Below are positions 1,665 to 28,356 of a stretch of DNA of 64,000 bases, piece after piece. Each line of letters begins with the position of its first letter. Position 1 is the first letter of the stretch. Origin of the DNA: Planctomycetota bacterium (GTDB lineage Bacteria > Planctomycetota > UBA1135 > GCA-002748355); assembly GCA_011321845.1 (NCBI GenBank), contig DROQ01000134.1, positions 10,891 to 74,890 on the forward strand, read 5' to 3'. Made by a program: the position numbers and the translations under genes. The notes under the pieces were generated by a model that saw nothing but the letters and a program-made list of their open reading frames with translations, searched no databases and was not told the origin of the DNA.

Positions 1665-1779
1665 AGAGCCTTTCGCCCCCGTTGCGAAATCTCTAGGTCC
1701 GCCTGGGCAGACCAGGTCCCTGTGGGACTTGGTGTTGGGCCTAGGCTTTTCCCTGATCTGTTCTCCTGGACCTGGCCGG

Positions 1780-2343: not shown

Positions 2344-2656
2344 TTCGTTGTTCCTTGTCTGTGTTCTGCAGGACCTCGAATGAACCAGGCCACCCGCCCG
2401 TCCATCCGAGGTTTCCAAAAAAGATCCTGAGCCGATGGGTCCTATCTTCTCAGAATCCTCCCTCTACGGCCCAAAGAATGGCCATACAGGACCCTTGCAC
2501 AACCCTTTTCTCCCCGCAATTCCCCCCATCCGACATTCCAGCTCCCCCAACCCCCTTCCCCATCCAGCTCGAGTACCTCCCCCCCCTTCTCCCCGAAGCA
2601 GGCAGCCTCCCCCCCAATCCAAGCTCTCGATCCCCAATCCCAGACCCCAAGCTGAA

Positions 2657-2729
2657 CTCGGACTCCTCCAAGGGCTTTGGCCGACTTCGCCGAAGGCGCC
2701 TGAGGCCAAAGCCCTTGGAGGAGTCCGAG
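2657..2729. repeat. Perfect 26-bp inverted repeat (hairpin) with a 21-nt loop, in a ~560-bp noncoding gap
   Basis: The arm CTCGGACTCCTCCAAGGGCTTTGGCC (2657-2682) is the exact reverse complement of GGCCAAAGCCCTTGGAGGAGTCCGAG (2704-2729). The loop contains a small CGCC-GAA-GGCG hairpin. Confidence 0.9.
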
Positions 2730-2907
2730 CCGCGCGGAGGAAGAGTTTGCACGGCAGGGTGCCGAGGACGGGCTAAGGCCGGGGAACTCCCTCGGGGAGA
2801 TTACGAAAGACCAGGAAGGATCAGGATAGACCCGCCCATGGGATTTGAGCTTGCATCCCATGGGCGTGGGAAAAGAAAGACCTGCATCGGCTCTCTCCAG
2901 GGATCCT

Positions 2908-8942: not shown

Positions 8943-8945
8943 GGC

Positions 8946-12619: not shown

Positions 12620-12720
12620 CCGCTCCCCGAGGGTGGGAGCGGCGAGGAGCTTCGGGGGCCTGGCCCGAGTTCGGCCCCGACCGAGGATCTGGGAACCGGA
12701 ACGCAATGGCTCCGATAGGC

Positions 12721-14139
12721 TCAGAACCATAGTGGCATGAGGATGGGAGAGGGCCGGATGTCTCCCTCCTGATCCCCGAGCCGGATCGGGTTTCCCTTGT
12801 CGTCCACCCAGACGCCCTTTTTGTTGGGGAAGCCCCGCCATGCCAGGTATTTTTGCTTTTGGGCTCCGGTCAAGGGCTTTCCGTTTCGGAGGATGCGCAC
12901 CCTGTCGTCCAGGATGGTGTTGGTTCCATCCCTGTTTTTCCCGTCCACGGGGACGATGAACTGGACGATCCCCATTCCACCCAGGCCGCCCAAGTTCCCG
13001 GCCATCGACCGGCTGGGAGGGAAGGCGTATTTTTTGGAAAAGGGCTCCGAAGAGGTTTTCCCCAAACCGGAGACCCCGCCATCCGCGCTCACCGAGAAGG
13101 AATTGTCCTTTTCACCATAGGTCCCGCCATGCACATGGAGGTCAATGCCCTTTCTCGAGGCGAGGATGACCATTCCCCCTGATCCTCCTCCTCCGGCGCC
13201 TCCCCATTGGCTGCTTCCCCCGGGTTCGCCCCCACCCCCGTCTCCACCGTTGGCGCTGATCTGCCCCTTGGGACCGACGATGATCTTGCCGAGGGCGTAG
13301 ACGAGGACTGCACCTCCTCCTCCGCCCCCTCCGGCGCCCTTTTCGTCGAGACGGAAGTTCGGGCGATAGTAGCGGTCGCCCCCGCCTCCTCCTCCGCTCC
13401 CTCCAAAGGGTCGGAGGATTTCCCCGTGGATGAGCCGCTTTTGATGGACATCCACCGCCCATCCCCAGAAATCGTTGTCCTTGCGACGATCGAAGAGGAG
13501 GAGAGAGCCGGGGGCTCCTCCCAAGACCTTGCTTCGGCCCTGGCCAAAACCCCCAAAGCCGATCTGTTGGACATTGCGGAGCGTTTTGGGATCAAAGCGG
13601 AGGGGGAAATAGGGGTCTCCCTTGGTGGAGAAGCTCCCACCACCCCCTCCCGCGCCGGAGATCCCGCCCGTGGTGTTGGCCAATCCTCCCACCCCGCCCA
13701 GTCCGAGGATCCCGAAGGGGCCGAAGCCCATTTCGCCTCCAGGGCTGTGTCCGGTGGAGTTGGGGGATCCCCGCCCTCCCGCGCCCCCGGCGGGTCCGGG
13801 CTTACCCCCGGGAGAGGGGAAGTTGGCGGAGTTCAAAGTGTCTACGTTGGGTGCGTTCTGTCCATCGCCATCCAGCCGCCCGTTTACGACCAGGTCACCG
13901 AGGGAGACCAGGATCAGGGGGTTGGGGCCTTCGGCGTGGACGCGGATTCCCTGGTCGATTTGGACTCTGTTGAAAACAAAGATCCCCCCTTTGAACACCT
14001 TGGATCCAATCTTTTGGCTGGCGGTGTTCAGCACCAGGCTTTTTTTGGGCTGGAAAACGGTCTGGGCTTGGAGCCCAGGGGCGCCGAGCAAAGCGAGCAG
14101 AAGGGACGAGGGAAGAAAGGGGAAGCGGGTGGATTCCAT
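12721..14139 (-). CDS. Secreted glycine-rich protein (predicted beta-solenoid)
   Basis: AGGAGG sits 6 nt before the ATG at 14139. Signal peptide MESTRFPFLPSSLLLALLGAPGLQAQ. Gly runs GGGGGGG alternate with short beta-like segments (AVLVYALGKIIVGPKGQISANGGDGGGG, GGMVILASRKGIDLHV). Confidence 0.8.
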   Translation of the reverse strand: MESTRFPFLPSSLLLALLGAPGLQAQTVFQPKKSLVLNTASQKIGSKVFKGGIFVFNRVQIDQGIRVHAEGPNPLILVSLGDLVVNGRLDGDGQNAPNVDTLNSANFPSPGGKPGPAGGAGGRGSPNSTGHSPGGEMGFGPFGILGLGGVGGLANTTGGISGAGGGGGSFSTKGDPYFPLRFDPKTLRNVQQIGFGGFGQGRSKVLGGAPGSLLLFDRRKDNDFWGWAVDVHQKRLIHGEILRPFGGSGGGGGGDRYYRPNFRLDEKGAGGGGGGGAVLVYALGKIIVGPKGQISANGGDGGGGEPGGSSQWGGAGGGGSGGMVILASRKGIDLHVHGGTYGEKDNSFSVSADGGVSGLGKTSSEPFSKKYAFPPSRSMAGNLGGLGGMGIVQFIVPVDGKNRDGTNTILDDRVRILRNGKPLTGAQKQKYLAWRGFPNKKGVWVDDKGNPIRLGDQEGDIRPSPILMPLWF

Positions 14140-14266
14140 TGCTGTCCTCCTGGAAAAGGAAAAGGGGGCTGTCCAGGAAGAAATAGGCGCGAAGGGGAGC
14201 CCGCGTAATGCGTCCTACTTGCAAATCATTGTTTTTTTGGTGGGAGGAATCGCTTCCCCCCTCGGG

Positions 14267-14683
14267 CTAGGTCGCGCCCGGGGTCTGGTTGAGCGAGGTG
14301 AAGTGGGAGGTCACCACGCGCCAGTCTTTGCCGGGGAAGAGGACGAGGGCCATGCTGAGATGGCCGCCGGTCTCGACCTCGTGGCCAGTGGGATCCACCT
14401 GGAGCAGGTTCCACTCGAGGACGACCGAAGAGAAGCGATCCTCGAAGACCTGGATCCTGGGGTTCTTGAAGGAGAGCTTGACGTTGTCGAGGTAGCGGAA
14501 TTCCTGATCGAGGGCTTCCTCAAAGGCTCCCCATCCCTGGTCCAGGCGACCCGAGTGGTCGATGTGCAGGAATTTGGGGTTCGTCCAGAAGTACGACCGA
14601 AAGGTCTTGAGATCCTGGCTGTTAAAGGCTTGGCGGATCTCACGGAGTCGGTCTTCGATGGCTTTGATCGTTCCTGAGCTCAT
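14267..14683 (-). CDS. NTF2-fold protein (SnoaL/DUF4440-like)
   Basis: Its length and the pattern IKAIEDRLREIRQAFNSQDLKTFRSYF...VVLEWNLLQVDPTGHEVETGGHLSMALV..DWRVVTSHFT are typical of NTF2-like proteins. I preferred the ATG at 14683 to the GTG at 14692. Confidence 0.65.
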   Translation of the reverse strand: MSSGTIKAIEDRLREIRQAFNSQDLKTFRSYFWTNPKFLHIDHSGRLDQGWGAFEEALDQEFRYLDNVKLSFKNPRIQVFEDRFSSVVLEWNLLQVDPTGHEVETGGHLSMALVLFPGKDWRVVTSHFTSLNQTPGAT

Positions 14684-14828
14684 GGTCCTCACAGATGCTC
14701 ATGGTCTCGGTCGGAGGAGATCCCTCCGGCCACGAATGGACGAAATCCGAATGACTGGTCCCCAGAGGGCTTTCTTCCCGAGAGCCGCAGCCTGGAGCCA
14801 CTCAATCGAAACGGTTGATAAGGGCGAT

Positions 14829-16160
14829 CTAGTGGTTTTTCAAACCTTTGTAGAAAGGCTCCTTTTCCTTTTCGTATCGAATCTTACCGAGGACGATGGC
14901 GGTCTCAACGAAGGATTTGTAAGAGAGAGGGTCCCCGTCCAGGATCAGGATGTCCGCGTCCTTGCCGACCTCCAGGGAGCCGATCCGGTCGTCCACTCCC
15001 AGGATCTTGGCGGCTTGGAGGGTGATGGTGGAGAGGGCCTTCTCATTGTCCATTCCGCCACGGACGGCGAAGCAGGCATCCATGAAGGGGGTGTTCAGAT
15101 CCCGGCCCAGGAGGCCCCCGAGGCCCATTCCGTTTCCGCCGAACCGCCCGGGGGGAGGAGTGACGGTCAAAGGAACCCCAGCCTTGGCCAGGATGTAGGG
15201 GCCTTGGATGTTGGAGCCGTTCTCTTCGATGCGAGTGGGGTCGGGCTCCACGTGGACTCGGGGCTGAAGAATACAGGAGGAGTGGGTGGCGGCGATTTCA
15301 TCGGGGATGATCCAGGCCTCGACGGGTCCATTGAGGACGATGCCTTTGCCAAGGAGTTTGGCGAGCCTCAAGGCTTCGCGGATCTGGGACACGGTCCGCG
15401 CTCCGGAAATGAGGAGTTTGGCCTTGCCTTCGAGGATGGGGAGGAGGGCGAGGCTGGCCTTGTCCGCCTTGGGGGCCTTGACCTTGGTGTCCCCGGCGAC
15501 TTTTTTCGCTTCATAGGCCGCTTTCTCCTTCTGGTACTTCCGGGTTTTTTCCAGGGCTTCTCTCAGCTTTTTCCAGGCGGAGGGGGAGGAGGGAACAGAC
15601 ATGGATTTCAATGTTCCCGCCTTGACGAGGATCTCGTCCAGCTCCCTGGGGATCAGCCTGAGGACTGCGGAATTGCCCGAAGGGAGGGTCCCCCCACGGG
15701 CGGGCATGTAGAGGTAACTGGTGATTCCGACCGCGATCGCCCTCCGGATCGTCTGGTCAAAGGGGTTGTAGTAGTCCTGAAAATCCTTGGACGGCCTGCC
15801 TCGCAGTCCCAAGGCAGGGGCCTGGACCATGATGAAGCCGGGGGAAATGTGCTTGTCCTTGGCGTCGAGGATCTTGCACCCCTTGGGGAGGTCCAGATGG
15901 AAACCGAAGGCTTTGATCTTGCCGTCCTCGACCAGAAGGGTGGCGTCCCGAACCACCTTGCCGTCTCCGATGTGGAAGGTTCCTCCCTGGATGGCCAGGG
16001 GCCGGGTTTTGGCCTTCTTGGCGGTTTTTTTCGCCGGAGCCTTGGGGGTGCTGGGTGGGGCGGCCTTTTTACTCCGCCGGCTCGAAGGACGAGTCTGGGA
16101 AGAAGCCCCGAGAGCGAGCATCCCAGTGGCGAGGGCGATCATTGCGTAGCTGCGTTTCAT
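14829..16160 (-). CDS. Secreted amidohydrolase-fold protein, module 9 (HxH motif absent)
   Basis: Signal peptide MKRSYAMIALATGMLALGASSQ from the ATG at 16160. N-terminal LLVEDGKIKAFG...ILDAKDKHISPGFIMVQAP, where HxH would be expected. C-terminal DDRIGSLEVGKDADILILDGDPLS. Confidence 0.75.
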   Translation of the reverse strand: MKRSYAMIALATGMLALGASSQTRPSSRRSKKAAPPSTPKAPAKKTAKKAKTRPLAIQGGTFHIGDGKVVRDATLLVEDGKIKAFGFHLDLPKGCKILDAKDKHISPGFIMVQAPALGLRGRPSKDFQDYYNPFDQTIRRAIAVGITSYLYMPARGGTLPSGNSAVLRLIPRELDEILVKAGTLKSMSVPSSPSAWKKLREALEKTRKYQKEKAAYEAKKVAGDTKVKAPKADKASLALLPILEGKAKLLISGARTVSQIREALRLAKLLGKGIVLNGPVEAWIIPDEIAATHSSCILQPRVHVEPDPTRIEENGSNIQGPYILAKAGVPLTVTPPPGRFGGNGMGLGGLLGRDLNTPFMDACFAVRGGMDNEKALSTITLQAAKILGVDDRIGSLEVGKDADILILDGDPLSYKSFVETAIVLGKIRYEKEKEPFYKGLKNH

Positions 16161-16209
16161 TTCAGTCTTGGTCCTGGTTTGTTCCTTCCATGTTTCGGGC
16201 TTGAAATGC

Positions 16210-17778
16210 CTAGTCCTGGTCTTGGTCCGAGGGGAGGGGGTGGACCCTGCGCCCTTCGAAGTAAATGGCCTCGAGTCTGGTCGCCGGGCCAAAGGGGGTC
16301 CCCACCAGGTGGATCAAGTTGGCGGCCCTGCCTTTTTGGATGAAACCCAACTCCTTGTCGACTCCCAGTGACTTGGCGACTTCACCGGTGCAGAGGGAGA
16401 CGAGCTTGGCCAAGGAGATGCCGGCCTGGCGGAAGCGACTCATCCGGAAGGAGAGGCTCGCCAGGGAAGCGGCGTTGTCTCCGGGAACCAGGGCGAGGGG
16501 GACGCCTGCGTCGAGGAGGCGCTTGGCCGGGCAGATGAACCATTGGGTGTCCTCGGCGAAGGCCAGCTGCACGGGGAGGACCACGCGAGCCTTGTACTTC
16601 TTGAGGAGGGGGATGACCTGGTCCAGGGTCTCCCGGGAGAGGCGCGAGTACTTTTGGACCACGGTCAAAGAGATTTTGTAGGTTTCCAGGTAGGAGGAGA
16701 GGGCTCTCAAGCCTTGGAGCAACTCTCCCAGGCCGCCGACCTGGAGGACGAGGGGACGTTTGCCCTCGAGGACTTCTGCGAGGACGACCAGCTTGGGGTC
16801 CTCCTTGGGGGCGGCCTTTTTCTTGGGGGCCGGTTTGGGGGCAGTCTTTTGGGCCGGCTTGGTCCTTGGCTTTTGGGGGGCGGGTTTCGGAGCCGGTTTC
16901 GGGCTTGGTTTGGGACTCGGCTTGGGGCTCGGCTTGGGGCTCGGCTTGGGAACAGGCTTTGGGGTCGGCTTGGGATGGGATCCCTTTCCCTTGCTCGGCG
17001 TCCCTTTGCTCGGGGAGGAAGCCTTGGAAGGGCCGGCTGTTTTGCCTTTTTTGGGGGCAGCCGCCTTCTTGCGGGCTTTGAGGAGTTGGACGGCTTTGTC
17101 GAAGTTCGTTTGGATCGCTTTTTGGGCATTGGAGCCGTAGCCCATGCGGAGCCAGAGGAAGAGCCCGTCTTTGAGCACCCATTTCTTGGGATCGCCGATC
17201 CCGATGCGCAGAACGGATTCTTGCCCAACGATTCCCGTGCGCGAGGGATGGACAGCCACGGTGGTGACGCCTCCCCGGAGGAGGTCTCTCCAGAGGGTGT
17301 TGTTGGGGTTCACCATGGAGCTGGCTTTGGCGGTGGGGTTGAAGGCAAAGCTCCCCGAACTACGGGCGGAGGGTTGGGGCATGCGCCGCCTGCGCCGCCT
17401 GTGGGGGTTGGGTCTGCCTGGCCGTTTCAGCTGGGGCGCCGTGGAGGCGGGGAGGGCAGCGTGGACGAGGCCGGGGATCAAGGCTCCACCTTCGACTCGT
17501 TTCATCGAGGGAGGGATGCGAAGTTTCGCGCCCATGTCCAGGATCTTGCCCTTGCGGACCAGGACCGTCTGGTTCCTGAGGACCTTGCCGCTTCCGTCAT
17601 AGACATCGACGTGGAGGAAGGCGATGTCCTCCGCCTTCTTGTCGAGGACCTTCTCGGCCGGGGTTCGTTTGTCCTTTTGGTCTTCGTCTGCGCGCGTTTT
17701 CGCTCCCAGCCTGGGAGCGAGACTCCCGAGGAGGAGGAGTCCCGTGAGGAGGGAGAGCGTTCGTTTCTTGGTCGACAT
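16210..17778 (-). CDS. Secreted amidohydrolase-fold protein, module 8 (HxH absent), with a long Lys/Pro linker
   Basis: Signal peptide MSTKKRTLSLLTGLLLLGSLA from the ATG at 17778. GALIPGLVHAALPAS in place of HxH. PKPTPKPVPKPSPKPSPKPSPKPSPKPAPKPAP linker. Degenerate C-terminal DKELGFIQKGRAANLIHLVG. Confidence 0.7.
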   Translation of the reverse strand: MSTKKRTLSLLTGLLLLGSLAPRLGAKTRADEDQKDKRTPAEKVLDKKAEDIAFLHVDVYDGSGKVLRNQTVLVRKGKILDMGAKLRIPPSMKRVEGGALIPGLVHAALPASTAPQLKRPGRPNPHRRRRRRMPQPSARSSGSFAFNPTAKASSMVNPNNTLWRDLLRGGVTTVAVHPSRTGIVGQESVLRIGIGDPKKWVLKDGLFLWLRMGYGSNAQKAIQTNFDKAVQLLKARKKAAAPKKGKTAGPSKASSPSKGTPSKGKGSHPKPTPKPVPKPSPKPSPKPSPKPSPKPAPKPAPQKPRTKPAQKTAPKPAPKKKAAPKEDPKLVVLAEVLEGKRPLVLQVGGLGELLQGLRALSSYLETYKISLTVVQKYSRLSRETLDQVIPLLKKYKARVVLPVQLAFAEDTQWFICPAKRLLDAGVPLALVPGDNAASLASLSFRMSRFRQAGISLAKLVSLCTGEVAKSLGVDKELGFIQKGRAANLIHLVGTPFGPATRLEAIYFEGRRVHPLPSDQDQD

Positions 17779-17834
17779 GATCTGTACGCCTTTACTTGCT
17801 TTTGGATCTCTTGCTTGCATCACCCGCATCCGGG

Positions 17835-19250
17835 TTAGAACTTGCGTCGCTTGTGGTTTTTTCCACCCGGGTCGCAGTTGTAGTAAAAGGTTCCGTTCAC
17901 CATGGCCCGGCGGACATAGTTGCGGGGGTCGAGGGGATCTCCAGTCCAGAGGACGAGGTCAGCGTCTTTGCCCACCTCGATGCTTCCGACCCGGTGGTCC
18001 GCGCCGATGAATCGGGCGGGGTTGATCGTGAGTCCCCGGATCGCGTAGGAGTCGGGCAGCCCGAGACGCACTGCCATGGCCGCTTGGACCGAGAGTTCCT
18101 CCTGGGGGACGACAGGGGCGTCCGTGTTGATCGCGATGCCATCCCGGCCGACCCCCGGGACTCCCTCGGGCCAGCCCAGCTTGCCTCCGAGAGCCCATCC
18201 CGCCGCAAGGCCGATGAACCGGCTGGTGTCACGATCGAACTGGTACTGCCGCGGCCCCAGGGCGATGGGGACTCCCCGCTTGAAGGCTTCTCCCGCCAGG
18301 CGGTAGGCGTCGAAGGTTCCGTGATCCACAAAGGTCCAGAGCCCGAACTCGTCGTGCAGCTCTCTCAGGGTTTCCAGGCAGACCTGGTAGGCCTGGGTGT
18401 GGACGCTGACGGGATACTCGTTGCGGAAGAGGCCGCGCAGGTATTCGAGGTCGGGTTGGAACTCGGGCTTTTCCTTGAGCTTGCCCGCGTCGTAGGCCTC
18501 CCATTTCTGGTAGTAGGCGCGCCCTCGCTCGAACATGGCCCGTAGGCCGAAATTCATGCCGATCCTCCCCGCGCCCATGTCCCCCGCGCGGCGCTCGGGG
18601 TTGCCCGCCTGGGCGACCTTGAGACTGCCCGGGAAGCGGATCAGGGCTTCGCTGGCGCTTCTGCCCGCAGTCTTGGTCAGAGTGCCGAAGCCTCCCGAGT
18701 TGGAACCCGAGCCGGGGATGTAGAGGACGGAGGTCACTCCACCGGCGAGGGCGCGCTTGATCTGTGGATGGTGGATGCCGACCAGGTCGAGGGTCCGAAA
18801 CTCGGGGTTGGTCGGATGGACGGTGTCGTTGAGGTCCCAGCCCGCCCCCGCGATGTGGCAGTGCAGGTCAACGAACCCTGGGAGCAGCCAGCCATCCCCC
18901 AGCTCGACTCTTTGGTAGCCTTGGGGGATCTTGATTTCCGAGGCTGGTCCCACGGCAAGGATCTTGCCCCGGTGGACCAGGACCACCCCGTCTTCGATGG
19001 GGGCTGAGGTCACAGGGAGGATGCGGCTCGCGAAAAGGGCGAGGTCCTTCGAATCGAAATCCTTGGGACCCCATTTGGCCACCTTGTAATCCTTTTCCTC
19101 CTTGGGCCGGTGCCCGAAGTCGATCTTGAAGGTCGCGGCCTGGGCCGGGCTCTTCCTGGGAGAAGTATCCTTCTCCTGCCCCAAGAGAGGAGAGAGGAGA
19201 AGGGTGGCGGTGAAAAAGACGGTGTAAGGGTTCTGGATCCGATGCATCAT
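17835..19250 (-). CDS. Secreted amidohydrolase, module 7. This is the only member with an intact HxH metal motif.
   Basis: LLPGFVDLHCHI (D-x-H-x-H). Later candidate ligands are VSVHTQ, FVDHGT and AINTDAP. C-terminal DHRVGSIEVGKDADLVLWTGDPLD. ATGA overlap with the upstream gene (ATG 19250, TGA 19249-19247). Confidence 0.85.
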   Translation of the reverse strand: MMHRIQNPYTVFFTATLLLSPLLGQEKDTSPRKSPAQAATFKIDFGHRPKEEKDYKVAKWGPKDFDSKDLALFASRILPVTSAPIEDGVVLVHRGKILAVGPASEIKIPQGYQRVELGDGWLLPGFVDLHCHIAGAGWDLNDTVHPTNPEFRTLDLVGIHHPQIKRALAGGVTSVLYIPGSGSNSGGFGTLTKTAGRSASEALIRFPGSLKVAQAGNPERRAGDMGAGRIGMNFGLRAMFERGRAYYQKWEAYDAGKLKEKPEFQPDLEYLRGLFRNEYPVSVHTQAYQVCLETLRELHDEFGLWTFVDHGTFDAYRLAGEAFKRGVPIALGPRQYQFDRDTSRFIGLAAGWALGGKLGWPEGVPGVGRDGIAINTDAPVVPQEELSVQAAMAVRLGLPDSYAIRGLTINPARFIGADHRVGSIEVGKDADLVLWTGDPLDPRNYVRRAMVNGTFYYNCDPGGKNHKRRKF

Positions 19251-22069
19251 TTGTTCTCCCCTGCGTTTTCCTGGAGGCCGTTCGCGGTCTTGGCGCTGTT
19301 GTCCACGGCCAGCTTTCCATGCACCCATACTTTGAGAATCCGGCTGCGAAGATCGAAGGGGTCCCCACTCAGGAGGACGAGGTCAGCGTCGCAACCTCGG
19401 TCGATCCTGCCGATCCTTTTGTCCAAGCCGTAACCCGCCGCGGGTGCACCGGTAATGGCCTTGCGCGCCTGCTTGGGGCTCATGCCCTGAGAAACCGCCC
19501 AGGCAGCGTGGACGGGAAGGAACTTGGTTCCTGCCTGCGCCCTTGTAATCAGGGCGATGTCCAGTCCCTGGCGATCCAGAGCGTCCGCGAGGGAGTGGTA
19601 GACCCCCTTCTCCATGTAGCCCAGTTCCTCGGGGCGGAGAAGAATCGTCAGCCGCGTTCCCTTGGGGAGCTTGAGGGGGTGTTCGGCGATTTCACGAGCG
19701 GATCCCTGGAGGACGAGCTGGAGTTTGGATTGGACCAGGACGCTGTCCACGGCGGCCTGGGCCGCGTCCCGGTTGGCGCAGCTGACGACCAGAGCGGCCC
19801 CGTCCTCGAAGACCGCCCGGAAAGGTTCCAGGCTCTTGTTGGTCTTGTCCTTGGTTTCCTCCTCCGGTTCGCTTTCGGCTTTGCTTGGGCTCCCTCCTCC
19901 TTCGGTCCTGTCCAACTCAAAGGTGATGGGGATGGGGACGGGAGCGTTCTTGACACTTCCTTCCATGTGATCCCCCGAAACCTCCGCTTCGATGTTCACA
20001 GAAGCGCCTTGAATTTTGGCCTTGAAGGTCAGGCGGGGAGGGTTCCAGTCCCCGGTGAGTTGGATCTTGCGAGGCCCGGTCATTTTGGCCTGAAGGGTCG
20101 CTTGCACCTTGGAACCGTTCAGACTCATGATCACCTTGAGTTCCGAACGCATGCTTCCTGCTTTGACCGTTCCCTTCCAGGTCCCGCTGATGGGATCCTT
20201 CTTCTGCTTCTTGGGTTTGGGGCTCGGGGCGGGCTTGGCCTTTGCGACCTTTTTTGGGTAGAGGTAGTCCTTGGCTTTTTTGAGGATGCCCTGGATCTGC
20301 GCCACCCCGCTCTTGCCTCCCCGGGAGAGGAGCAAGCGGATGCCCGCAATCTCCTTGAGCACAAAATCCTCCCGGTCCCCCTTGGGGTCCAGGTAGGTTT
20401 TGACTGCAGGAACGCGGGAACTGACCGGACCCGAATCGTCCGGGCTTACGAAAAGGGTGGTGATCCCCGCCTCGAGGGCGTCTCGAAAGGCGGGATCCCT
20501 CGGATCCAGGGCCGCGGCCACGTCGACACTGGTCGAGGCGGTGATCCTGGTCCCGGAACTCTGGTGGAGGCCAAGCTTGGAGGCGGCCGCGATCATGCCG
20601 GGCATGAGGACGGCGCTGGGAAACTCGAGGATCTTGGCGCCGGGTGGGATCAGGGCTTCGGGACCGAAGTCGAGGATCTTGCCGTCCTGGACGACGACGA
20701 GGGAATTGTGTTGTTCGGTTCCATTTCCCAAGAGGATGCGCCCGCAGCGGAGGGCGAAGGTCTCCCGCACCCTCTTTTTCGCATAGGCGTTCTTGCCGTC
20801 CACCCAGACTTCGAGGATGCGGGTGCGGGCGTCGAAGGGGTCCCCGGTGAGAATGATGAAGTCGGCGTCCTTGCCTTCTTCGAGAGAACCGATCCGGTCG
20901 GCGACGCCGCTGGCTCTCGCGGCTTCGAGGGTGATGGCCTTGATGGCTTCGTGTTCCGGGAGGCCGTAGCGGCAGGCCAGGCCCGCGAGCATGAGGAGTT
21001 TGTCCAGGTCGCGGTCCGTGCCGGGGACGAGGGCGATCGGCACACCGGCCTTGGAGAGGATGCCGGCTGTAGCCGGTGCGTTGAAGGGCTTGCCTCCCGG
21101 GATCCGGTAATCCCCCTGGAGCGGGTGGGCGGGATCCAGGGGGAGGCTCAAGATGGTGGTGACGGCTTGCTTCCCCAGCTCCGCCTTGAGCGCGGCGGCT
21201 TCGAGAGGACGATCCAGCACGATCGAGGCTCCAAGGCGCCTGGCGAGGTCGAGACCCTGCAGGATCTCCCCCGTGGTCTCCGCGTGGAGGTGGATGGGGA
21301 GCTTGCCCTGGGTGACCGCCCGGAGCGGACCGAGGTCGGTCCTCTTGCCGAACTCCGGGGTGGTCCGGAGCTTGGGATCCTTGGCGAGGTCGAAGGCTTT
21401 TTCCAGGATCTCGATCTGACTGGAAAGGCTGGTACCCCACTGCTTGCGGGCAGGGCGGAGGGGATTGTCCGCGGTGGGGGCCGCAACGGGCTCGAACACG
21501 GGAGGGGGGACCCTCGAGTTCCGGGTCAAGTTGATATCGAGGCCGGCGGCGTTGGAAAGGCTGCGGGCGGCCTCCCCGGGACCCGCGAGCTTGACGACGG
21601 AGCCCAGGCCGGGGACGAGCCGGCTTTTTCCGGGAGAAAGGTACATCGAGGTGATGCCCCCGGCGAGGAGCCTGCTGTGATCCGCGAAGGAGTCGAAGTT
21701 GTCCTCGGCCACGAGGTCGGGCCGGATGTTGTCCTCCACGTCCCGGGCGGCCAGGCCTGTGTAGGCAGCGACGATGCCCGGCATGAGGGTGTTCCGGGAG
21801 GCGTCGATCACCTTGGTCCCCTTGGGGATGGGGCCCTTGTCCTTTTGGATCTTGAGGATCTTGCCATCCTGGAGGTAGATGCGAACTCCCTCGAGGACAC
21901 GACCGTCGCCCACGTAGACCCGGCCCGCGCGGATGCAGGTGCTCGGAACCTGGGCGCTGGAGGTTTTGGCCTCCGGAGCCTTGGGGGTCGTGGATTGTGC
22001 GGGGACCGCCAGGGAGAAGGCCCCGAGGCAGAGGCCTCCCAAGCTGGATTTCAAGAGTCTTCCCCTCAT
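19247..22069 (-). CDS. Secreted fusion of two amidohydrolase-fold modules (modules 5 and 6, both lacking HxH), with an embedded small beta-sandwich-like insert
   Basis: Signal peptide MRGRLLKSSLGGLCLGAFSLAVPAQS. Two lead-ins (MPGIVAAYTGL and MPGMIAAASKL). Two C-terminal signatures (ADRIGSLEEGKDADFIILTGDPFD and DKRIGRIDRGCDADLVLLSGDPFD). Insert ISGTWKGTVKAG...VSGDHMEGSVKN. Confidence 0.75.
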   Translation of the reverse strand: MRGRLLKSSLGGLCLGAFSLAVPAQSTTPKAPEAKTSSAQVPSTCIRAGRVYVGDGRVLEGVRIYLQDGKILKIQKDKGPIPKGTKVIDASRNTLMPGIVAAYTGLAARDVEDNIRPDLVAEDNFDSFADHSRLLAGGITSMYLSPGKSRLVPGLGSVVKLAGPGEAARSLSNAAGLDINLTRNSRVPPPVFEPVAAPTADNPLRPARKQWGTSLSSQIEILEKAFDLAKDPKLRTTPEFGKRTDLGPLRAVTQGKLPIHLHAETTGEILQGLDLARRLGASIVLDRPLEAAALKAELGKQAVTTILSLPLDPAHPLQGDYRIPGGKPFNAPATAGILSKAGVPIALVPGTDRDLDKLLMLAGLACRYGLPEHEAIKAITLEAARASGVADRIGSLEEGKDADFIILTGDPFDARTRILEVWVDGKNAYAKKRVRETFALRCGRILLGNGTEQHNSLVVVQDGKILDFGPEALIPPGAKILEFPSAVLMPGMIAAASKLGLHQSSGTRITASTSVDVAAALDPRDPAFRDALEAGITTLFVSPDDSGPVSSRVPAVKTYLDPKGDREDFVLKEIAGIRLLLSRGGKSGVAQIQGILKKAKDYLYPKKVAKAKPAPSPKPKKQKKDPISGTWKGTVKAGSMRSELKVIMSLNGSKVQATLQAKMTGPRKIQLTGDWNPPRLTFKAKIQGASVNIEAEVSGDHMEGSVKNAPVPIPITFELDRTEGGGSPSKAESEPEEETKDKTNKSLEPFRAVFEDGAALVVSCANRDAAQAAVDSVLVQSKLQLVLQGSAREIAEHPLKLPKGTRLTILLRPEELGYMEKGVYHSLADALDRQGLDIALITRAQAGTKFLPVHAAWAVSQGMSPKQARKAITGAPAAGYGLDKRIGRIDRGCDADLVLLSGDPFDLRSRILKVWVHGKLAVDNSAKTANGLQENAGENK

Positions 22070-23388
22070 TTGCCTCGACCTCCTCCGGCCGAGGTCCGGC
22101 TGCCCTTGACTCCGGTCAGCGCCTTGACACGGGGGTCCTTGCTCCGTTGGTAGATCAGCTTGCCTCCGGCCAGCAGGTGGGTTACCACGCTCTCAGGTTC
22201 GAAGGGGGGCGCGGAGCGAACCTGGATAAAGGCTTCCATTCCCTTTTGGATCTTCCCCACCCGCCTGGAGAGCCCGAGAACGGCGGCGGCCTCAGTGGTG
22301 AATCCTTCGAGAGCTTTTTCGGGACTCAGGCCGTAGCGGATGGCGGTTCCGCATTGCCAGGTGGGGTAGTTCAGGGTTGGGCTCGAGCTGCGTCCCCAAC
22401 GCCCGGAGGTCGCGGGGGTGGTCAGGGCGAAACGAAGACCCGCGTCGGCGAAGACCCGGGCCGGGCTGACCCGTTTCTGGTCCTTGGTGATGGGGTCGGT
22501 TTCGATGATCTCCAGATTGGGATCCAGGACCAGGGGAATCCCCCGCAGCTTGACAAAGGGCTGGAGGAGCTTGACCGCCTTGTAGCAGTCTCCCCCCAGA
22601 ACAAAGGTCACGGGGAAACGGAAGCGCTGGCAGAGCCGGATGGCCGCGGGCACATCCGTCGCTCCGGGGATGTAGAGCATGGCGCGGATCTTCCCCTCGA
22701 GGAGGTCGACCAGGGGTTTCTTGAGGGGATCGAGAACCTCTTCGAATTCCTTCTTGGTGGTGGCTCCGTTGGCCTTGTCCTCCTCGAACTCTTTCTTTCT
22801 CCGTTCGAAGTCGCTCTTGGCGTTCTTGGCATCCTCCAAGGCGGTCAAGATGGTTCGGTAGTGATCCGCCCTGCTTCCCCGTGTCGGTTTGAGAGAGATC
22901 TTCAGGACCGAGGGCTCGAGGATCTGCATTTCCTCCGGGGTTTTTCCCCAGGGTTGGAAGACTCCGCCTGTTCCCCCGATGGCGCAGGCGTTTCCGGGGA
23001 CGACATGGATCACGCCGTACCCCGCGCGCCGGCAGTTCTCGAAGAAGGTGTCGACGGGGTTGATGGAGTCCATCACGCTGAGGAAGGGGGTCACAGGCAT
23101 GGACTCATTTTCCCTGTCCATTCCTCCCGAGCCGTGGGCCAGCACGAAGGCGGGCATCACGTATCCCTTGCGGGCGTCGATGACGCGGGCGTTCCAGGGG
23201 ACTTGGATGTCCTTGCCGATCTCCCGGATCTTGCCGTCCTTGATCAGGATGGTCACGTTCTCGAGAGTGCTCCCCGGCTCGAGCATGACCTTGCCCGCCC
23301 GGATGGCGAGCTGGTCCTGGGCCTTGGAGGCCGGGCCGAGGAGGAAGGGGGTGAGGGAAAGGAGCGAAACTGCGAGGAGCTTGTTCAT
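22066..23388 (-). CDS. Secreted amidohydrolase-fold protein, module 4 (HxH absent)
   Basis: The ATG at 23388 opens signal peptide MNKLLAVSLLSLTPFLLGPASKAQ. An alternative TGATG-coupled start at 23463 would add 25 non-signal residues. YVMPAFVLAHGSG in place of HxH. Degenerate C-terminal SRRVGKIQKGMEAF. Confidence 0.7.
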   Translation of the reverse strand: MNKLLAVSLLSLTPFLLGPASKAQDQLAIRAGKVMLEPGSTLENVTILIKDGKIREIGKDIQVPWNARVIDARKGYVMPAFVLAHGSGGMDRENESMPVTPFLSVMDSINPVDTFFENCRRAGYGVIHVVPGNACAIGGTGGVFQPWGKTPEEMQILEPSVLKISLKPTRGSRADHYRTILTALEDAKNAKSDFERRKKEFEEDKANGATTKKEFEEVLDPLKKPLVDLLEGKIRAMLYIPGATDVPAAIRLCQRFRFPVTFVLGGDCYKAVKLLQPFVKLRGIPLVLDPNLEIIETDPITKDQKRVSPARVFADAGLRFALTTPATSGRWGRSSSPTLNYPTWQCGTAIRYGLSPEKALEGFTTEAAAVLGLSRRVGKIQKGMEAFIQVRSAPPFEPESVVTHLLAGGKLIYQRSKDPRVKALTGVKGSRTSAGGGRGK

Positions 23389-23462
23389 CGGTACCAAAAG
23401 GTTGAAGGAACGAAAGATACGGTGCTGGTTCTTGGAGGAAGGACCTTGGATCGGGAGGTTCA

Positions 23463-24680
23463 TCAGCGCTTGGCCTCCCCTTGGACGGTTCTCCCTGAAA
23501 TCAGGACCCTCACGGGGTGGCTGCCCAGGGAGAGAGGATGTCCCGACCAGAGAACGAGGTCGGCGTCGAGACCCTTTTTGATGCTGCCTACGCGATCGGC
23601 GATCCCCAGGATGTCCGCGGGGACGGAGGTGACCGCCGCGAGGGCCTGCTCTCGGCTGAGGCCGCCACGCACGGTGAAGGCCGCCTCCTGGATCAGTGGG
23701 AGCCTGGTGATTCCGCGCCCCGTCTGGATCGCGAAACGGATCCCTTTTTTGGCGAGAAGGGTTGCGGTGTCCAAGTGGGGGGTGGCCCCGTCGGGGACCA
23801 GGCTCGCCGAGGGGGCGGTGAGGAGGACGGGGAAACCTGCCTTCTCGAGCTGGTCCAGTGCGAAGTAGGCCTCGGAGGCCCCGTCGATGACGATTTTGAG
23901 CCCGAACTCCCTGGCCAGCCGGAGAGCGGTCCGGATGTCCTGATCGGCCCGGGCCGTCATGCGGCAGCGGATCTTGCCTTGGAGGGTGCCCAGGAGGACC
24001 TTGGTTCCCCGGTCGGGTTCGCGGCGGACCTTGGTGTCCCGATATTTCATGGCTTTGTAAAAGGCTCGGCGGATCTCCCAGATGGTTCCCATGCGGGTCG
24101 TAGGCCTGCGGTTGTAGAGGGAAGTGGGCTTGCCCCAGCGGGGGGGGCGGTTGCCGTATCCCGGCAGGGTGCCGAGAGTGACGCGGAGTCCGCTCCCTGA
24201 TTTCAGGAGGCGCTCCTGGAGGGGTCCCCCGGTCTTGAGGATGGCGTCGAGGCCTCCGATGACGTTGTAGCCACCCGGACTGACGCAGGCCGTGGTCACC
24301 CCGTTCTCGAGGGCGAAGCGGAAGGCGGGGCTCTTCAGGTCGATCGCGTCCTTGACCTGGATGGCCGGGGTGACTTCTTCGGACTGTTCGTTTTCCTGGT
24401 CGCTCGGGAGGCCGAGGGCGGTGTTGGCGTCAACGAGGCCGGGGGTGAGGAAGAGCCCGCTCGCGTCGATGACCTGGTCACTGGGCAGTGGTTCGACCTT
24501 GCCGACGGCCTGGATCTTGCCGTCCACGATGCGAACCGAGATCCCCTTGGTGAACCCTCCCTCACCCGTGAAGACCTGGGCTCCCTGGATGACGATCGGT
24601 TTCTCCTGGGCTCCGCCCGAGGCACAGAGGAGGGTAGCGAAAAGGCCGGACAACAGCCATTGCTGCGCTTGTGTGTTCAT
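23463..24680 (-). CDS. Secreted amidohydrolase-fold protein, module 3 (HxH absent)
   Basis: The ATG at 24680 gives MNTQAQQWLLSGLFATLLCASGGAQ. LTPGLVDANTALGL in place of HxH. C-terminal ADRVGSIKKGLDADLVLWSGHPLS. Confidence 0.75.
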   Translation of the reverse strand: MNTQAQQWLLSGLFATLLCASGGAQEKPIVIQGAQVFTGEGGFTKGISVRIVDGKIQAVGKVEPLPSDQVIDASGLFLTPGLVDANTALGLPSDQENEQSEEVTPAIQVKDAIDLKSPAFRFALENGVTTACVSPGGYNVIGGLDAILKTGGPLQERLLKSGSGLRVTLGTLPGYGNRPPRWGKPTSLYNRRPTTRMGTIWEIRRAFYKAMKYRDTKVRREPDRGTKVLLGTLQGKIRCRMTARADQDIRTALRLAREFGLKIVIDGASEAYFALDQLEKAGFPVLLTAPSASLVPDGATPHLDTATLLAKKGIRFAIQTGRGITRLPLIQEAAFTVRGGLSREQALAAVTSVPADILGIADRVGSIKKGLDADLVLWSGHPLSLGSHPVRVLISGRTVQGEAKR

Positions 24681-24685
24681 TGGAT

Positions 24686-25894
24686 CTACTTTTCTCCCTG
24701 ATTGGAGTTTTTCTTGGGCTGGGTCCTGGTCTTCCAGACCACCTTGCCGGAGCGGACCACGCAGAGGAGTTTGCTGCGCAGGTCCCAGGGGTCTCCGCTC
24801 CAGATGCAGAGGTCGGCGCGGCGGCCCTTGAGGAGGCTGCCCACCTGATCCTGGATTTTGAGCAGGGAGGCGGGGACCGAGGTCAAGGAGGCGAGGGCGA
24901 GCTTGGGGTCCAATCCCTGCCGGACGGCGGTCCATAGGGTGAAGCCGAAGCGCGGCAGGCCGGCCTTGTCGAAGCCTTCGCCGCTGAAGGCGAAGGGGAT
25001 CTTGGCTTTGGCGAGCTTGAGGGGGAGGCGGAGGGCTTTTTTGGAGCTGTTGGGGCTGAGGGGGTCGAGGACGACTCCGATCTCCAGCTCCTTGATGCGG
25101 GGGAGGCTGAGGGCGGCCTCGTTGGCGTGAATGAGGAATCCCTCGAGCTTGTCCTCCTCGAAGAGGTCCAGCGCGGCTTGGATCTGGGGGAGGGTCCGGC
25201 AGGCGATGCCCACCACCCGGCCTCCTCCCAGCGCGGAAGCGAAGACGGAGAGCACCGGGTCGTTTCCCTTCTCAAGAGGGTTTCTGGCGTCCTCAAAGCT
25301 GTTGCGCAGGATGTCGACCGCTCCCAGGAGACTGGTGGGGGGGCGCCCCCGGTTGAGCACCGCGTTGGTGAGGGAGAGCTTGAGATAGGCTTCTCCCTGG
25401 GCTGTGAGGGAGGAGGGCCCTGGCTGGATCCAGGCTGCGCTGCCCCCGGCCAGGTTCCCGTCGTCGGGGGCCAGGGCGATGGTCGTGACGCCGCGGCGCA
25501 GGAGGGCTTTCCAGCGAGGGGCGAAGGGGTCGTAGGCGCTTTTTGCGTTCCATTTTGGAGCCATCGCGAAATTCCGCTCCCGCAGCTCCCCCGCTCGGGC
25601 GAGATCGGGGGGGAGGCAGTGGATGTCGATGAAGGCTGGTGTCACGACCGCTCCCTCGTAGACCAGTTTGTTCGGGGTCAGGGAGTCGAAGGGGAGGTCT
25701 CCCGGCTTTCCGCTCCGTTCCGCAACATCCTGGATGCGCCCCTTCTCGATCAGCAGGCTGCCTCTGGCCAGGACCTGTTGACCGGAGAGATGGATCCTTC
25801 CCGCGCGGACGACGAGCCGTTCTTGGGCGTGGGTCCTGGAGAGGAAGAGGGAGAGAGCGAGGAGGGGGAGGAACCCCCGCAGCTGAACCTTCAT
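24686..25894 (-). CDS. Secreted amidohydrolase-fold protein, module 2 (only the first His retained: IDIHCL)
   Basis: Signal peptide MKVQLRGFLPLLALSLFLSRTHAQ. VVTPAFIDIHCLPP. C-terminal QDQVGSLLKGRRADLCIWSGDPWD. ATGA overlap with the upstream gene (25894/25891). Confidence 0.75.
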   Translation of the reverse strand: MKVQLRGFLPLLALSLFLSRTHAQERLVVRAGRIHLSGQQVLARGSLLIEKGRIQDVAERSGKPGDLPFDSLTPNKLVYEGAVVTPAFIDIHCLPPDLARAGELRERNFAMAPKWNAKSAYDPFAPRWKALLRRGVTTIALAPDDGNLAGGSAAWIQPGPSSLTAQGEAYLKLSLTNAVLNRGRPPTSLLGAVDILRNSFEDARNPLEKGNDPVLSVFASALGGGRVVGIACRTLPQIQAALDLFEEDKLEGFLIHANEAALSLPRIKELEIGVVLDPLSPNSSKKALRLPLKLAKAKIPFAFSGEGFDKAGLPRFGFTLWTAVRQGLDPKLALASLTSVPASLLKIQDQVGSLLKGRRADLCIWSGDPWDLRSKLLCVVRSGKVVWKTRTQPKKNSNQGEK

Positions 25895-27540
25895 TGTTGT
25901 TCCTCAATCTTTTGCAGCTTGCTGCGTCTGAGAAGATAGATGGGGCGTGATCCGGGGGAGAGGGGGGCTCCCTTCCAGACGATCCAGGGGATGGTGGCCC
26001 GCTTGGAGAGCACTCCGCAAACCTTGAAGGCCGATGGCCCCAACATCGCGATGGCGTCCCTTTCGCTCGCCCCAAAGGTTGTTGCCCGCGCCGCCACCGC
26101 GGGTAGCAGCCTGGCATGGAGTTTCCCTCCCGAGCCCAAGGCTACGGGGATCCCTTCCTTGGCCAGGGTGGCCGCCGAATAGGCCCAATGCTGCTCCCGG
26201 AGGGCGAGGCGCCTGGCCGGGACCGAACTCTCTTCGGGGAGGGCCTGGGGGATGAGGAGGACATTGGCTTCTTCCCCCCGAATCTCCGCGGCGACCTTCC
26301 AGGCCTCGGTCCCCCCGGCGATCGTGAGATGCTTGAGGGAGTGGCGATGGGCGAGGTCGAGCAGAGCGAGGATCTCCTTGGCCCGGTGGATTTCGACGAT
26401 GAGGGCCAGTTTCCCGTCCAGGATCTTGCGGAAAGCTTCGAGCTGGGGGTCTCGTTTGGGCCTTTTGGGATAGGCCGGACGTTTGGGGGCCTTGCCGGTC
26501 TTGGCTCCCTGGGTGGATGGGGCTTTCGGTTTTTTGGCGACGGATTTGGCCTTGGCCTTTTTGAGCGCTTCTTGCTGGAGTCGCATCTGCTTCTCGAGCT
26601 GCTTGCGAACCCGGTCCCGGATCTGTGGGGGATAGCGCTTCAGGATCTTATTGATGAGTTCGGGAGTGAGGAGGGGCATCTTTCGCCGGCGTCCCCTTCG
26701 TTTCGTCGGTTTCGGGGCGGCAGAGACCACCTTCTCCCCCGGTTTCAGGGGGTGCTTCTTGTAGTAAGAAAGGAATTCCTTGCGCTTTTTCTGGTATTCC
26801 TGCAACTCCTTCTCGAACTTCTTCCAGGCCTTTGCATAGGCCTTGGCCTTTTTGAAAAGGTTCTCCAGGGGCTGGACCACCTTGTCGTAGGAAAGATTGT
26901 TCACCGGGCTTGTGGGAGAGGAGAGTTTCATCCAGACCGCCCCGGGGAGGGAGCCGAGGAAACCCTTCTTCATGTCCACCAGGACGAGGGCGCCCGGCCC
27001 CGTTGTGGAAGGCCTGGGGGAACCTGGAACGTAGAACCCCCCATAGCCTTCCTGGCTCAGGAGGGGGCGATACCCGGTCTGCCAGGGTTCCAGGGAGGAG
27101 CGGAGAGGCATCCCCGCGAGGAGCTTGCTGTCCCCCAGGGCCGCCTTGGAGAGGAATTGGGTGGAGCAGGCATCGATGAAAGCGGGAGAGAGGGTGGATC
27201 TAGGGACCGCACTCAGGTCTATGACCTTGGCCTTGATCTTGTCCTTGGCAAGGGGCAGCTCCTTCTCCTGGCGTGGGAGGAGATCGATCAGGCGGCCCCG
27301 CCGAAAAACGGCCCAAAACCCCTGTTTTCCGGGTTTGCGATCCGCCAAGGGGCCTTCGGGGGTCCAGGAGACCCGGGCCAGGCCCAGGACCAGGACCCTC
27401 CTCTGGCCGAGCCAGCGCTCCAGGGGGCCGACCGGCTTTTGGGCTGGGACCTTCCTTGGGCTCGGTTGTTGCCCTTGCGTTGGTTTGGATGTCTGGGCAG
27501 GGAAGAGGCTTAGGCCAACGAGGAGGGAGGTCCAGATCAT
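25891..27540 (-). CDS. Secreted amidohydrolase-related protein, module 1 (most degenerate), with a ~140-aa highly basic insert
   Basis: N-terminal hydrophobic leader MIWTSLLVGLSLFPAQ. KVIDLSAVPRSTLSPAFIDACSTQ aligns to the PGFIDxHxH region of its paralogs. GIPVALGSGG is like the GVPIALVPG of the paralogs. Lys/Arg-rich insert KKAKAYAKAWKKFEKELQEYQKKRKE...KRPKRD. Confidence 0.6.
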   Translation of the reverse strand: MIWTSLLVGLSLFPAQTSKPTQGQQPSPRKVPAQKPVGPLERWLGQRRVLVLGLARVSWTPEGPLADRKPGKQGFWAVFRRGRLIDLLPRQEKELPLAKDKIKAKVIDLSAVPRSTLSPAFIDACSTQFLSKAALGDSKLLAGMPLRSSLEPWQTGYRPLLSQEGYGGFYVPGSPRPSTTGPGALVLVDMKKGFLGSLPGAVWMKLSSPTSPVNNLSYDKVVQPLENLFKKAKAYAKAWKKFEKELQEYQKKRKEFLSYYKKHPLKPGEKVVSAAPKPTKRRGRRRKMPLLTPELINKILKRYPPQIRDRVRKQLEKQMRLQQEALKKAKAKSVAKKPKAPSTQGAKTGKAPKRPAYPKRPKRDPQLEAFRKILDGKLALIVEIHRAKEILALLDLAHRHSLKHLTIAGGTEAWKVAAEIRGEEANVLLIPQALPEESSVPARRLALREQHWAYSAATLAKEGIPVALGSGGKLHARLLPAVAARATTFGASERDAIAMLGPSAFKVCGVLSKRATIPWIVWKGAPLSPGSRPIYLLRRSKLQKIEEQQ

Positions 27541-27665
27541 ATTCCGTCTGCGGTCGTTAAGGAAAAGGATGTCGGGGAAGGAGGGCAGCTGCCGTCATAC
27601 GAAAAGAGGGGCAATCCTGCCAGCGGCATTCTGAAATTCGAGCCGTTCATGTTACCCTTCTCCCG

Positions 27666-28259
27666 ATGCGTAGCCCGACGGTTTATTGTGGTCCGATGTG
27701 GGGGGGGAAGACCGAGGCCCTGATCTCCCGCCTTGTCCGTGCCCGGATCCAGGAGATCCCTGTTCTCGCGTTCAATCCGCACTTGAACGACCGCTATGGG
27801 ACGCGGGACATCCGCGCGCACTCGGGGGCGAGCTTTCCCGCGACTCCGGTGCATTCCGGGGAAGAAATCCTCGAGGTGGTCCGCCGGGAGCAGCCACAGG
27901 TTGTGGGGATCGACGAGTTTTTCATGATCCCTTCTGCCCTGGCGGCGGTCGAGTACATGGTCCACCGGAGGATCAAGGTCGTGGTCTCCACTCTGGACCT
28001 GGATTCCGAGGGCGTCATTTGGGAGGGACTGGGGCAACTGCTCGCCATGGCTGAGGAAGTCGTCAAATGCCCTGCCGTATGCGCGGTCTGCAAAGCCGAC
28101 GCGTATTTCACCTTCCGCAAGGGCTACGCTCCCTCCGAGCGGGTTCTGGTGGGGGCGGATGAGTTTTACGAGCCCCGCTGCCGCCGTTGCTTCGACCAGG
28201 GGCAGGAGGCCAAGCGAGCGGCTACGGGGGAGGGCTCCCTTTTTGACGGGGGGTCTTGA
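27666..28259 (+). CDS. tdk: Thymidine kinase
   Basis: P-loop GPMWGGKTEALI, DEFFM (Walker B-like), and the C-terminal Cys cluster CPAVCAVC...PRCRRC typical of type II thymidine kinases. Confidence 0.9.
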   Translation: MRSPTVYCGPMWGGKTEALISRLVRARIQEIPVLAFNPHLNDRYGTRDIRAHSGASFPATPVHSGEEILEVVRREQPQVVGIDEFFMIPSALAAVEYMVHRRIKVVVSTLDLDSEGVIWEGLGQLLAMAEEVVKCPAVCAVCKADAYFTFRKGYAPSERVLVGADEFYEPRCRRCFDQGQEAKRAATGEGSLFDGGS

Positions 28260-28356
28260 CGCTCAGGAAGGATTGCGGAAGATTCCCATGTTATGGAAGG
28301 TCTCATGTGCCCTCCGTGGAAAACGCCATCCTTGTTCGCCGAAAAAAAGAGGAATC

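Follow-up and report, generated by a model that had tools for sequence, protein, structure and literature searches.

Why would a bacterium keep nine copies of one enzyme fold side by side, when only one of them appears to have retained a catalytic metal site? The question is raised by a 64,000-nucleotide stretch of DNA from a member of the Planctomycetota (GenBank assembly GCA_011321845.1, contig DROQ01000134.1, positions 10,891 to 74,890 of the forward strand), referred to here as the window. Between positions 27540 and 14829, the minus strand of the window carries an unbroken run of eight co-directional, tightly packed genes, which encode nine paralogous modules of the amidohydrolase fold. 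The modules were numbered M1 to M9, where M5 and M6 are fused in one gene, and their positions are collected in Table 1.

M7 was the only one of the nine modules found to keep the complete set of canonical ligands, consisting of a His-x-His pair (HxH) on strand 1, a Lys on strand 4, a His on strand 5, a His on strand 6, and an Asp on strand 8. The strand numbers were taken from an alignment with the PDB entry 3OOQ, an uncharacterised amidohydrolase of Thermotoga maritima MSB8 solved in a structural genomics effort. This entry matched M7 over its full length (E 9e-53; profile E 3e-64), and it shares with M7 the HxH/K/H/H/D pattern and the helical segment that lies between strands 4 and 5; the HxH of M7 aligned with HSH of 3OOQ. 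An initial annotation, made from the letters of the window without database searches, had already singled out this gene, and its coordinates agreed with the M7 gene if translation starts at MMHRIQ. It had also proposed later ligands in VSVHTQ, FVDHGT, and INTDAP, which aligned with MHAH, EHGT, and CDHP of 3OOQ. All five positions that it listed were borne out, whereas a sixth, the strand-4 Lys in SLKVAQ, had been overlooked. This residue is predicted to be the bridging (carboxylated) Lys.

The H, H, K, H, H, and D residues of M7 were invariant among 81 orthologues, with the Asp present in 79 and the position falling in a gap in the remaining two. Orthologues of M7 with 57-92% identity occurred in many metagenome-assembled genomes (MAGs) of Planctomycetota; hundreds of close M7 homologues were found, nearly all of them from uncultured members of this phylum. 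The fold, the HxH, the Lys/His/His set, and the Asp together give M7 every sequence-level hallmark of a binuclear (carboxylated-Lys) amidohydrolase, and M7 is predicted to be the sole catalytic subunit among the nine modules.

The same positions were then followed through the other modules by aligning the orthologues of each (19 to 81 sequences per module) with MAFFT and mapping the alignments onto M7 with hhalign. Nearly all six ligand positions were lost in each of M1 to M6, M8, and M9, and the columns varied between orthologues of the same module. The HxH was absent from M1, M3, M5, M6, M8, and M9, and its first His alone was kept in M2 and M4. For M2, the window sequence retained this His (IDIHCL) together with a non-conserved His at strand 6, and the first His was found in 23 of 57 orthologues. 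M4 kept the first His in 62 of 67 orthologues and the strand-4 Lys in 66 of 67, being the only one of the eight modules with this Lys; its other four columns read S, Y, L, and a gap. The strand-5 His seen in the window copy of M5 was not conserved among orthologues, and the strand-5 position of M1 was an invariant Glu. The strand-8 Asp was absent or not conserved in M1 to M6 and M9, and the sole ligand remnant of M8 was a D or E at this position in 41 of 50 orthologues. Additionally, the HxH position was occupied by D-x-D in most M5 orthologues outside the subclade of the window, and the second His of HxH was kept in most M6 orthologues; neither feature was present in the window copies.

A census of His, Cys, Asp, and Glu residues conserved in at least 80% of orthologues identified no conserved substitute His/Cys cluster in any degenerate family. 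Conserved His residues were nearly absent (H85 and H128 of M4, and H418 of M6), and in no degenerate module did the barrel mouth offer as many as three conserved potential ligands. The initial annotation had read the HxH as confined to M7 from nine strand-1 motifs, all of which were recovered exactly as written in the minus-strand translations, and had called the other eight modules pseudoenzymes unless alternative metal ligands emerged. At the level of sequence this prediction stands, and it now extends beyond the HxH to the Lys of strand 4, to the His of strands 5 and 6, and to the Asp of strand 8, with the ligands invariant in the 81 M7 orthologues and the same columns lost and variable in the eight other families. 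Because M7 alone keeps the metal-binding catalytic residues, the eight remaining modules are probably non-catalytic partners, that is, pseudoenzymes as regards the canonical metal-dependent chemistry of amidohydrolases.

The loop that follows the HxH in M7, DLNDTVHPTNPEFRTLD, was near-invariant among the M7 sequences, with D, D, H, E, and D conserved. Parts of this loop (E/D...P...D) persist in the degenerate M3, M4, M5, and M9 as well as in 3OOQ, and its role may be structural or at an interface, and not catalytic.

All-against-all BLASTP and hhalign comparisons with the family of M7 (100% probability, E 1e-41 to 1e-73) showed the nine modules to be true paralogues. Their identity to each other was 22-30% in full-length BLASTP alignments, and even the most divergent module, M1, matched the M7 family over 418 columns (probability 100%, E 1.4e-41). 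The entry 3OOQ was the top PDB match of M7, of M3 (full length, E 3e-46), of M9, and of a structural model of the M5-M6 fusion; M3 was the degenerate module closest to it, and all nine modules belong to the 3OOQ clade. The fusion was modelled with AlphaFold2 from 53 homologues, giving two sandwich-plus-barrel modules with a mean predicted local distance difference test score (pLDDT) of 85.4 and a predicted template modelling score of 0.65. The template modelling score between this model and 3OOQ was 0.82 (E 1e-26), and other amidohydrolases were matched at about 1e-13.

Three modules carry distinct insertions at the same place in the barrel. In M6, an all-beta insertion of about 95 amino acids and eight strands (residues ~629-723, pLDDT mostly 84-91) replaces the helical hairpin found between barrel strands 4 and 5 of other modules, and no Pfam match was obtained for it. 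Between the same strands, M1 has a Lys-rich insertion of about 180 amino acids (138-211 across orthologues) and M8 has a Pro/Lys-rich insertion of about 160 amino acids (KPSPKPSP...; 131-171 across orthologues). The latter two are of low complexity, for example KPSPKPSPKPSPKPAPKP.

Family databases gave little to name these proteins by. The matches from Pfam and NCBIfam were weak and lay at the two ends of the modules; those from Pfam covered only the last ~60 residues in most modules, and M1 had none. The best NCBIfam scores were 95 bits for the fusion and 71 bits for M7, against a cut-off of 500 for NF051886. Of the eight proteins, four had the NCBIfam Xaa-Pro dipeptidase model as their best weak match and two had it as their second-best. 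Since these scores are far below the curated cut-offs, no activity or functional name can be transferred from them.

Orthologues of each degenerate module were found in 19 to 73 genomes with intact reading frames. Relative to the closest relative (locus L003), the ratio of nonsynonymous to synonymous substitution rates (dN/dS) was approximately 0.05-0.14 for M3, M4, M5-M6, M7, M8, and M9. The degenerate modules are retained by purifying selection with their fold preserved; they are not decaying, because this comes together with a gene order kept in about 80 loci. Family-to-family profile scores were 400-554 among the pseudo-modules, with M3 as a hub, and 279-409 between the pseudo-modules and M7. 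Eight independent losses of the ligands are thus unlikely, as the pseudo-module families score higher together than with M7, and the pattern is consistent with the site having been lost once or a few times before the modules were duplicated.

The comparison of loci included 80 genome loci with 10-kb flanks and two contigs reached by protein look-up, all from MAGs. The order M1-M2-M3-M4-M5/6-M7-(M7b)-M8-M9 recurred in about 80 Planctomycetota loci, down to an M7 identity of 45%, and M5 and M6 were fused in every locus that covers both. The bracketed M7b is a second fully liganded paralogue, placed directly after M7 in about two thirds of the complete operons, which brings these to ten modules. 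It was ~45% identical to M7, and the two formed sister families by profile score; the HHKHHD set was invariant in 47 M7b sequences, whose carriers include loci L016, L018, L020, and about 40 others. M7b was absent from the window, which like its nearest relatives has nine modules. M7b was fused to M8 in L001/L014 (L001, positions 11434-14043), only fragments of it were found in L025 and L070, and a further locus (L044) had eleven modules with three intact copies.

In other lineages, for example the Aminicenantes and the Gemmataceae, relatives of the fusion protein made up smaller systems. In two loci (L083, positions 8001-12358, and L084, positions 93-3873), a two-module protein was followed by a one-module protein, with HxH in exactly one of the three modules. 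Other database relatives were single proteins of 1200-1470 amino acids with three modules, each having one module of the HHKH(H/Q) type or a partial trace of one. Alignment to the M7 profile showed that most two- and three-module relatives held exactly one HHKH(H/Q)D module beside ligand-less ones, and the intact module was the first, the middle, or the last. One active module accompanied by degenerate paralogues would therefore appear to be a recurrent trait of the 3OOQ-like family, and the repeated fusion of catalytic with degenerate modules argues that the modules touch each other.

The layout of the operon in the window is tight. Start and stop codons overlapped at four junctions, by 4 nucleotides at M1/M2, M4/M5-6, and M5-6/M7 and by 1 nucleotide at M3/M4; the M7 start overlaps the stop of the fusion gene as ATGA, and two further junctions had gaps of 5 nucleotides. 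A promoter and terminator scan of positions 14000-28300 gave counts no higher than in shuffled sequence. In all eight proteins, a few charged residues at the N-terminus precede a hydrophobic segment some 12 residues long, whose end lies close to Ala-x-Ala or Ala-Gln. We infer these N-termini to be Sec signal peptides, so that all eight would be exported. All nine modules were basic, with isoelectric points of 9.0-10.7.

Taken as a whole, the locus is read here, with moderate confidence, as encoding a Sec-exported hetero-oligomer in which M7 is the catalytic subunit and the eight pseudoenzyme modules are its partners. The eight genes form one conserved operon of uncultured Planctomycetota, whose nine 3OOQ-type modules would be exported and assemble in the periplasm. 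M7 alone would build the canonical binuclear metal site and hence alone hydrolyse an amide-type bond; by family resemblance to the cog1228 enzymes, a first guess at the substrate would be the C-terminal residue of a peptide or an N-acyl amino acid. The other eight modules would join M7 as structural or scaffold, substrate-presenting, or regulatory partners. Physical association is suggested by the conserved order, the 4-nucleotide start/stop overlaps, and the recurrent gene fusions, and the reading as a hetero-oligomer is supported by 3OOQ, the closest solved relative, being a large homo-oligomer.

Several points weigh against this reading. The signal peptides were assigned by eye and from hydropathy, and dS was saturated (1.4-3.9), which makes the dN/dS values approximate, though they are far below 1. 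The number of modules, judged from the gaps between M7 and M9, was 9, 10, or 11 per operon with ten the commonest. Residual ligand or metal binding may also persist in some modules, for example through the His and Lys of M4 or the D-x-D of M5 orthologues outside the subclade of the window.

A different explanation is that the degenerate modules are non-catalytic yet act as independent exported proteins that form no complex with M7. Each would bind a ligand or polymer through the old barrel pocket or the basic insertions, for example as a periplasmic binding protein or an envelope-associated protein, and would merely be co-regulated with one enzyme of a pathway. The strong divergence between modules would suit such separate roles, as would the module-specific insertions of conserved length (the Lys/Pro-rich ones of M1 and M8 and the beta domain of M6), the basic character of every module, and the differences in module number between lineages. 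However, subunits that interact physically are usually marked by a strict gene order, start/stop overlaps, and recurrent fusions between catalytic and degenerate modules, all of which are seen here, and 3OOQ, the nearest relative with a solved structure, forms a large oligomer. On balance, independent proteins are considered unlikely.

A bolder form of the hetero-oligomer would give each module a fixed place. The 3OOQ entry contains 10 chains, and a benchmark restricted to complexes of 10-30 chains classes it as dihedral (bioRxiv 10.64898/2026.08.06.736029). Ten chains with dihedral symmetry imply D5 symmetry for 3OOQ. The operon could then encode a hetero-decamer derived from a 3OOQ-like D5 homodecamer, with a different paralogue at each position and one or two of the ten catalytic. 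The genes would fall into five pairs, M1/M2, M3/M4, the fused M5/M6, M7/M7b, and M8/M9, and in the lineage of the window, where M7b would have been lost, M7 would be used twice. Such an arrangement is conceivable because ten is both the commonest module count and the number of chains in the dihedral 3OOQ. It stays speculative because operons of nine and eleven modules and relatives of three modules exist, and we hold it to be improbable. The strict version with ten unique positions is further weakened by the M7b fragments mentioned above.

The third possibility, for which we see only a slim chance, is that some or all of the degenerate modules are still enzymes, with a non-canonical, metal-independent, or differently liganded site. 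The amidohydrolase superfamily includes metal-independent members, such as LigI, and several of the remnants described above could be read in this way: the conserved His and Lys of M4, the invariant strand-5 Glu of M1, the Asp/Glu at strand 8 of M8, and the D-x-D that replaces HxH in most M5 orthologues. In contrast, the residues equivalent to the ligands were not conserved between orthologues for most modules, and the M5 of the window has Y and G in place of the HxH pair. The strand-8 Asp, which to our knowledge is near-universal in active members of the superfamily, was absent from seven of the eight modules, and no barrel mouth held as many as three conserved potential ligands.

Finally, the notion that the degenerate modules are decaying pseudogenes or artefacts of calling open reading frames in GC-rich DNA (GC ~60-69% around the operon, with many spurious long reading frames on both strands, and sparse Pfam coverage) has practically no likelihood left, being refuted by the conserved loci with intact frames, the dN/dS far below 1, the confident AlphaFold model, and the profile-profile probability of 100% for every module.

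With the exported hetero-oligomer as the preferred reading, the operon may be set beside known systems. The product of the 3OOQ gene is a single polypeptide that forms a homo-oligomer, whereas here the fold has been multiplied into nine or ten distinct, apparently exported paralogues, most of them without ligands; no signal peptide was seen in the part of 3OOQ aligned to M7. Full-text literature searches found no published description of the operon or of the function of 3OOQ. The cog1228 enzymes compared with M7 were the Cc2672 Arg/Lys carboxypeptidase (3MTW), the Sgx9260-type prolidases (3FEQ/3N2C and 2QS8), and the ochratoxin amidohydrolase ADH3 (8IHQ). They belong to the same superfamily branch, and M7 aligned with them around the HxH and the strand-8 Asp, but the alignment was limited to the N- and C-terminal ~70 residues. 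Judged by chain counts, they form homo-octamer-type assemblies from a single gene, in which every subunit is active.

Loss of metal ligands is also known from other branches of the superfamily. The CRMP/DPYSL proteins and PyrC', the inactive dihydroorotase-like subunit of Pseudomonas aspartate transcarbamoylase, have lost their metal ligands and are kept as non-catalytic subunits of oligomers, and CRMPs were among the weak PDB matches of M3 and M9. These cases involve one or a few paralogues from unrelated branches (hydantoinase and dihydroorotase), and none of them is known to be exported or to come from an operon in which eight pseudo-modules surround a single active paralogue. Pseudoenzymes beside an active paralogue are likewise familiar, usually as one or two copies. 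What is unusual here is the eight-to-one ratio of degenerate to intact modules of one fold, whose gene order has stayed the same throughout a deep clade of uncultured Planctomycetota. Because smaller relatives with one active module out of two or three occur elsewhere, including in the Aminicenantes, the data suggest that the 3OOQ-type family, of which 3OOQ is the only structure, habitually works as an asymmetric assembly with most subunits non-catalytic.

The differentiation of a homo-oligomeric ancestor into distinct paralogous subunits is established for the beta ring of the eukaryotic 20S proteasome, where three of seven beta subunits are catalytic, and for the chaperonin CCT/TRiC. This is an analogy only, as fold and chemistry are unrelated, and the fixed positions in a hetero-oligomer that are established there are conjectured here. 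If the complex proposed above exists, the operon would offer a tractable model, in bacteria, of the transition from homo-oligomeric enzymes to hetero-oligomers whose specialised subunits are mostly inactive, and would caution against labelling all nine modules as amidohydrolase family proteins. Should the hetero-decamer also hold, it would be a bacterial periplasmic counterpart of subunit differentiation in the proteasome and CCT.

Table 1. Features of the amidohydrolase-module operon and its neighbours, in window coordinates. Ligand residues are those of the window, in the order strand-1 H, strand-1 H, strand-4 K, strand-5 H, strand-6 H, strand-8 D.
Feature	Position	Strand	Ligand residues	Details
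M1	25891..27540	-	C, T, W, E, A, G	549 amino acids; motif PAFIDACST; no Pfam match
M1 insertion	~26390-26930	-		Lys-rich
M2	24686..25894	-		402 amino acids; motif PAFIDIHCL
M3	23463..24680	-	N, A, R, T, G, G	405 amino acids from MNTQAQQ; motif PGLVDANTA
M4	22066..23463	-		Motif PAFVLAHGS; start at 23463 or 23388 (MNKLL)
M5-M6 fusion	19247..22069	-		940 amino acids
M5 part of fusion	~22069-20762	-	Y, G, D, H, R, G	Motif PGIVAAYTG; degenerate
M6 part of fusion	~20761-19247	-		Motif PGMIAAASK; degenerate
M6 insertion	~19900-20185	-		All-beta
M7	17835..19250	-		Motif PGFVDLHCHI; span assumes start at MMHRIQ
M7 motif GFVDLHCHI	18878-18852	-		
M7 strand-1 His-x-His codons (H-C-H)	18855..18863	-		His codons 18863-18861 and 18857-18855
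M7 loop after HxH	~18780-18850	-		Near-invariant
M7 strand-4 Lys (SLKVAQ)	18618..18620	-		Aligns with GLKMAF of 3OOQ; invariant in 81/81 orthologues
M7 strand-5 His (VSVHTQ)	18399..18401	-		Aligns with RMHAH of 3OOQ
M7 strand-6 His (FVDHGT)	18321..18323	-		Aligns with EHGT of 3OOQ
M7 strand-8 Asp (INTDAP)	18120..18122	-		Aligns with GTDAG of Cc2672 (3MTW) and CDHP of 3OOQ
M8	16210..17829	-		Motif PGLVHAALP; start at 17829 or 17778 (MSTKKR)
M8 insertion	~16790-17270	-		Pro/Lys-rich
M9	14829..16160	-	Q, P, S, S, N, P	443 amino acids from MKRSYAM; motif PGFIMVQAP
SnoaL/DUF4440-like gene (NTF2 fold)	14267..14692	-		141 amino acids; no signal peptide; 136 nucleotides downstream of M9
Terminator-like hairpin	14205-14188	-		
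Gly-rich protein	12721-14139	-		472 amino acids
Thymidine kinase	27666-28259	+		Divergent from M1
Ser/Thr protein kinase	28603-31089	+		828 amino acids

Upstream of the operon, the thymidine kinase gene is followed by that of a Ser/Thr protein kinase whose C-terminal region is long. The thymidine kinase was the neighbour of the operon in only two related loci (L002 and L004), and both kinases appear to be ordinary neighbours that are not conserved with the operon. At the other end, the 472-amino-acid protein has an N-terminus resembling a signal peptide and long Gly-rich runs (GGGGGG...); no Pfam or NCBIfam match was obtained for it, and it was not found beside the operon in related loci. The terminator-like hairpin lies just after the SnoaL-like gene and was not relied on. 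The SnoaL-like gene itself was kept directly after M9 on the same strand in 62 related loci, with 43-64% identity. It was also called in L001 and L002, where the copy of the latter also matches the AtzH-like family PF11533, and it may belong to the cluster as a ninth member.

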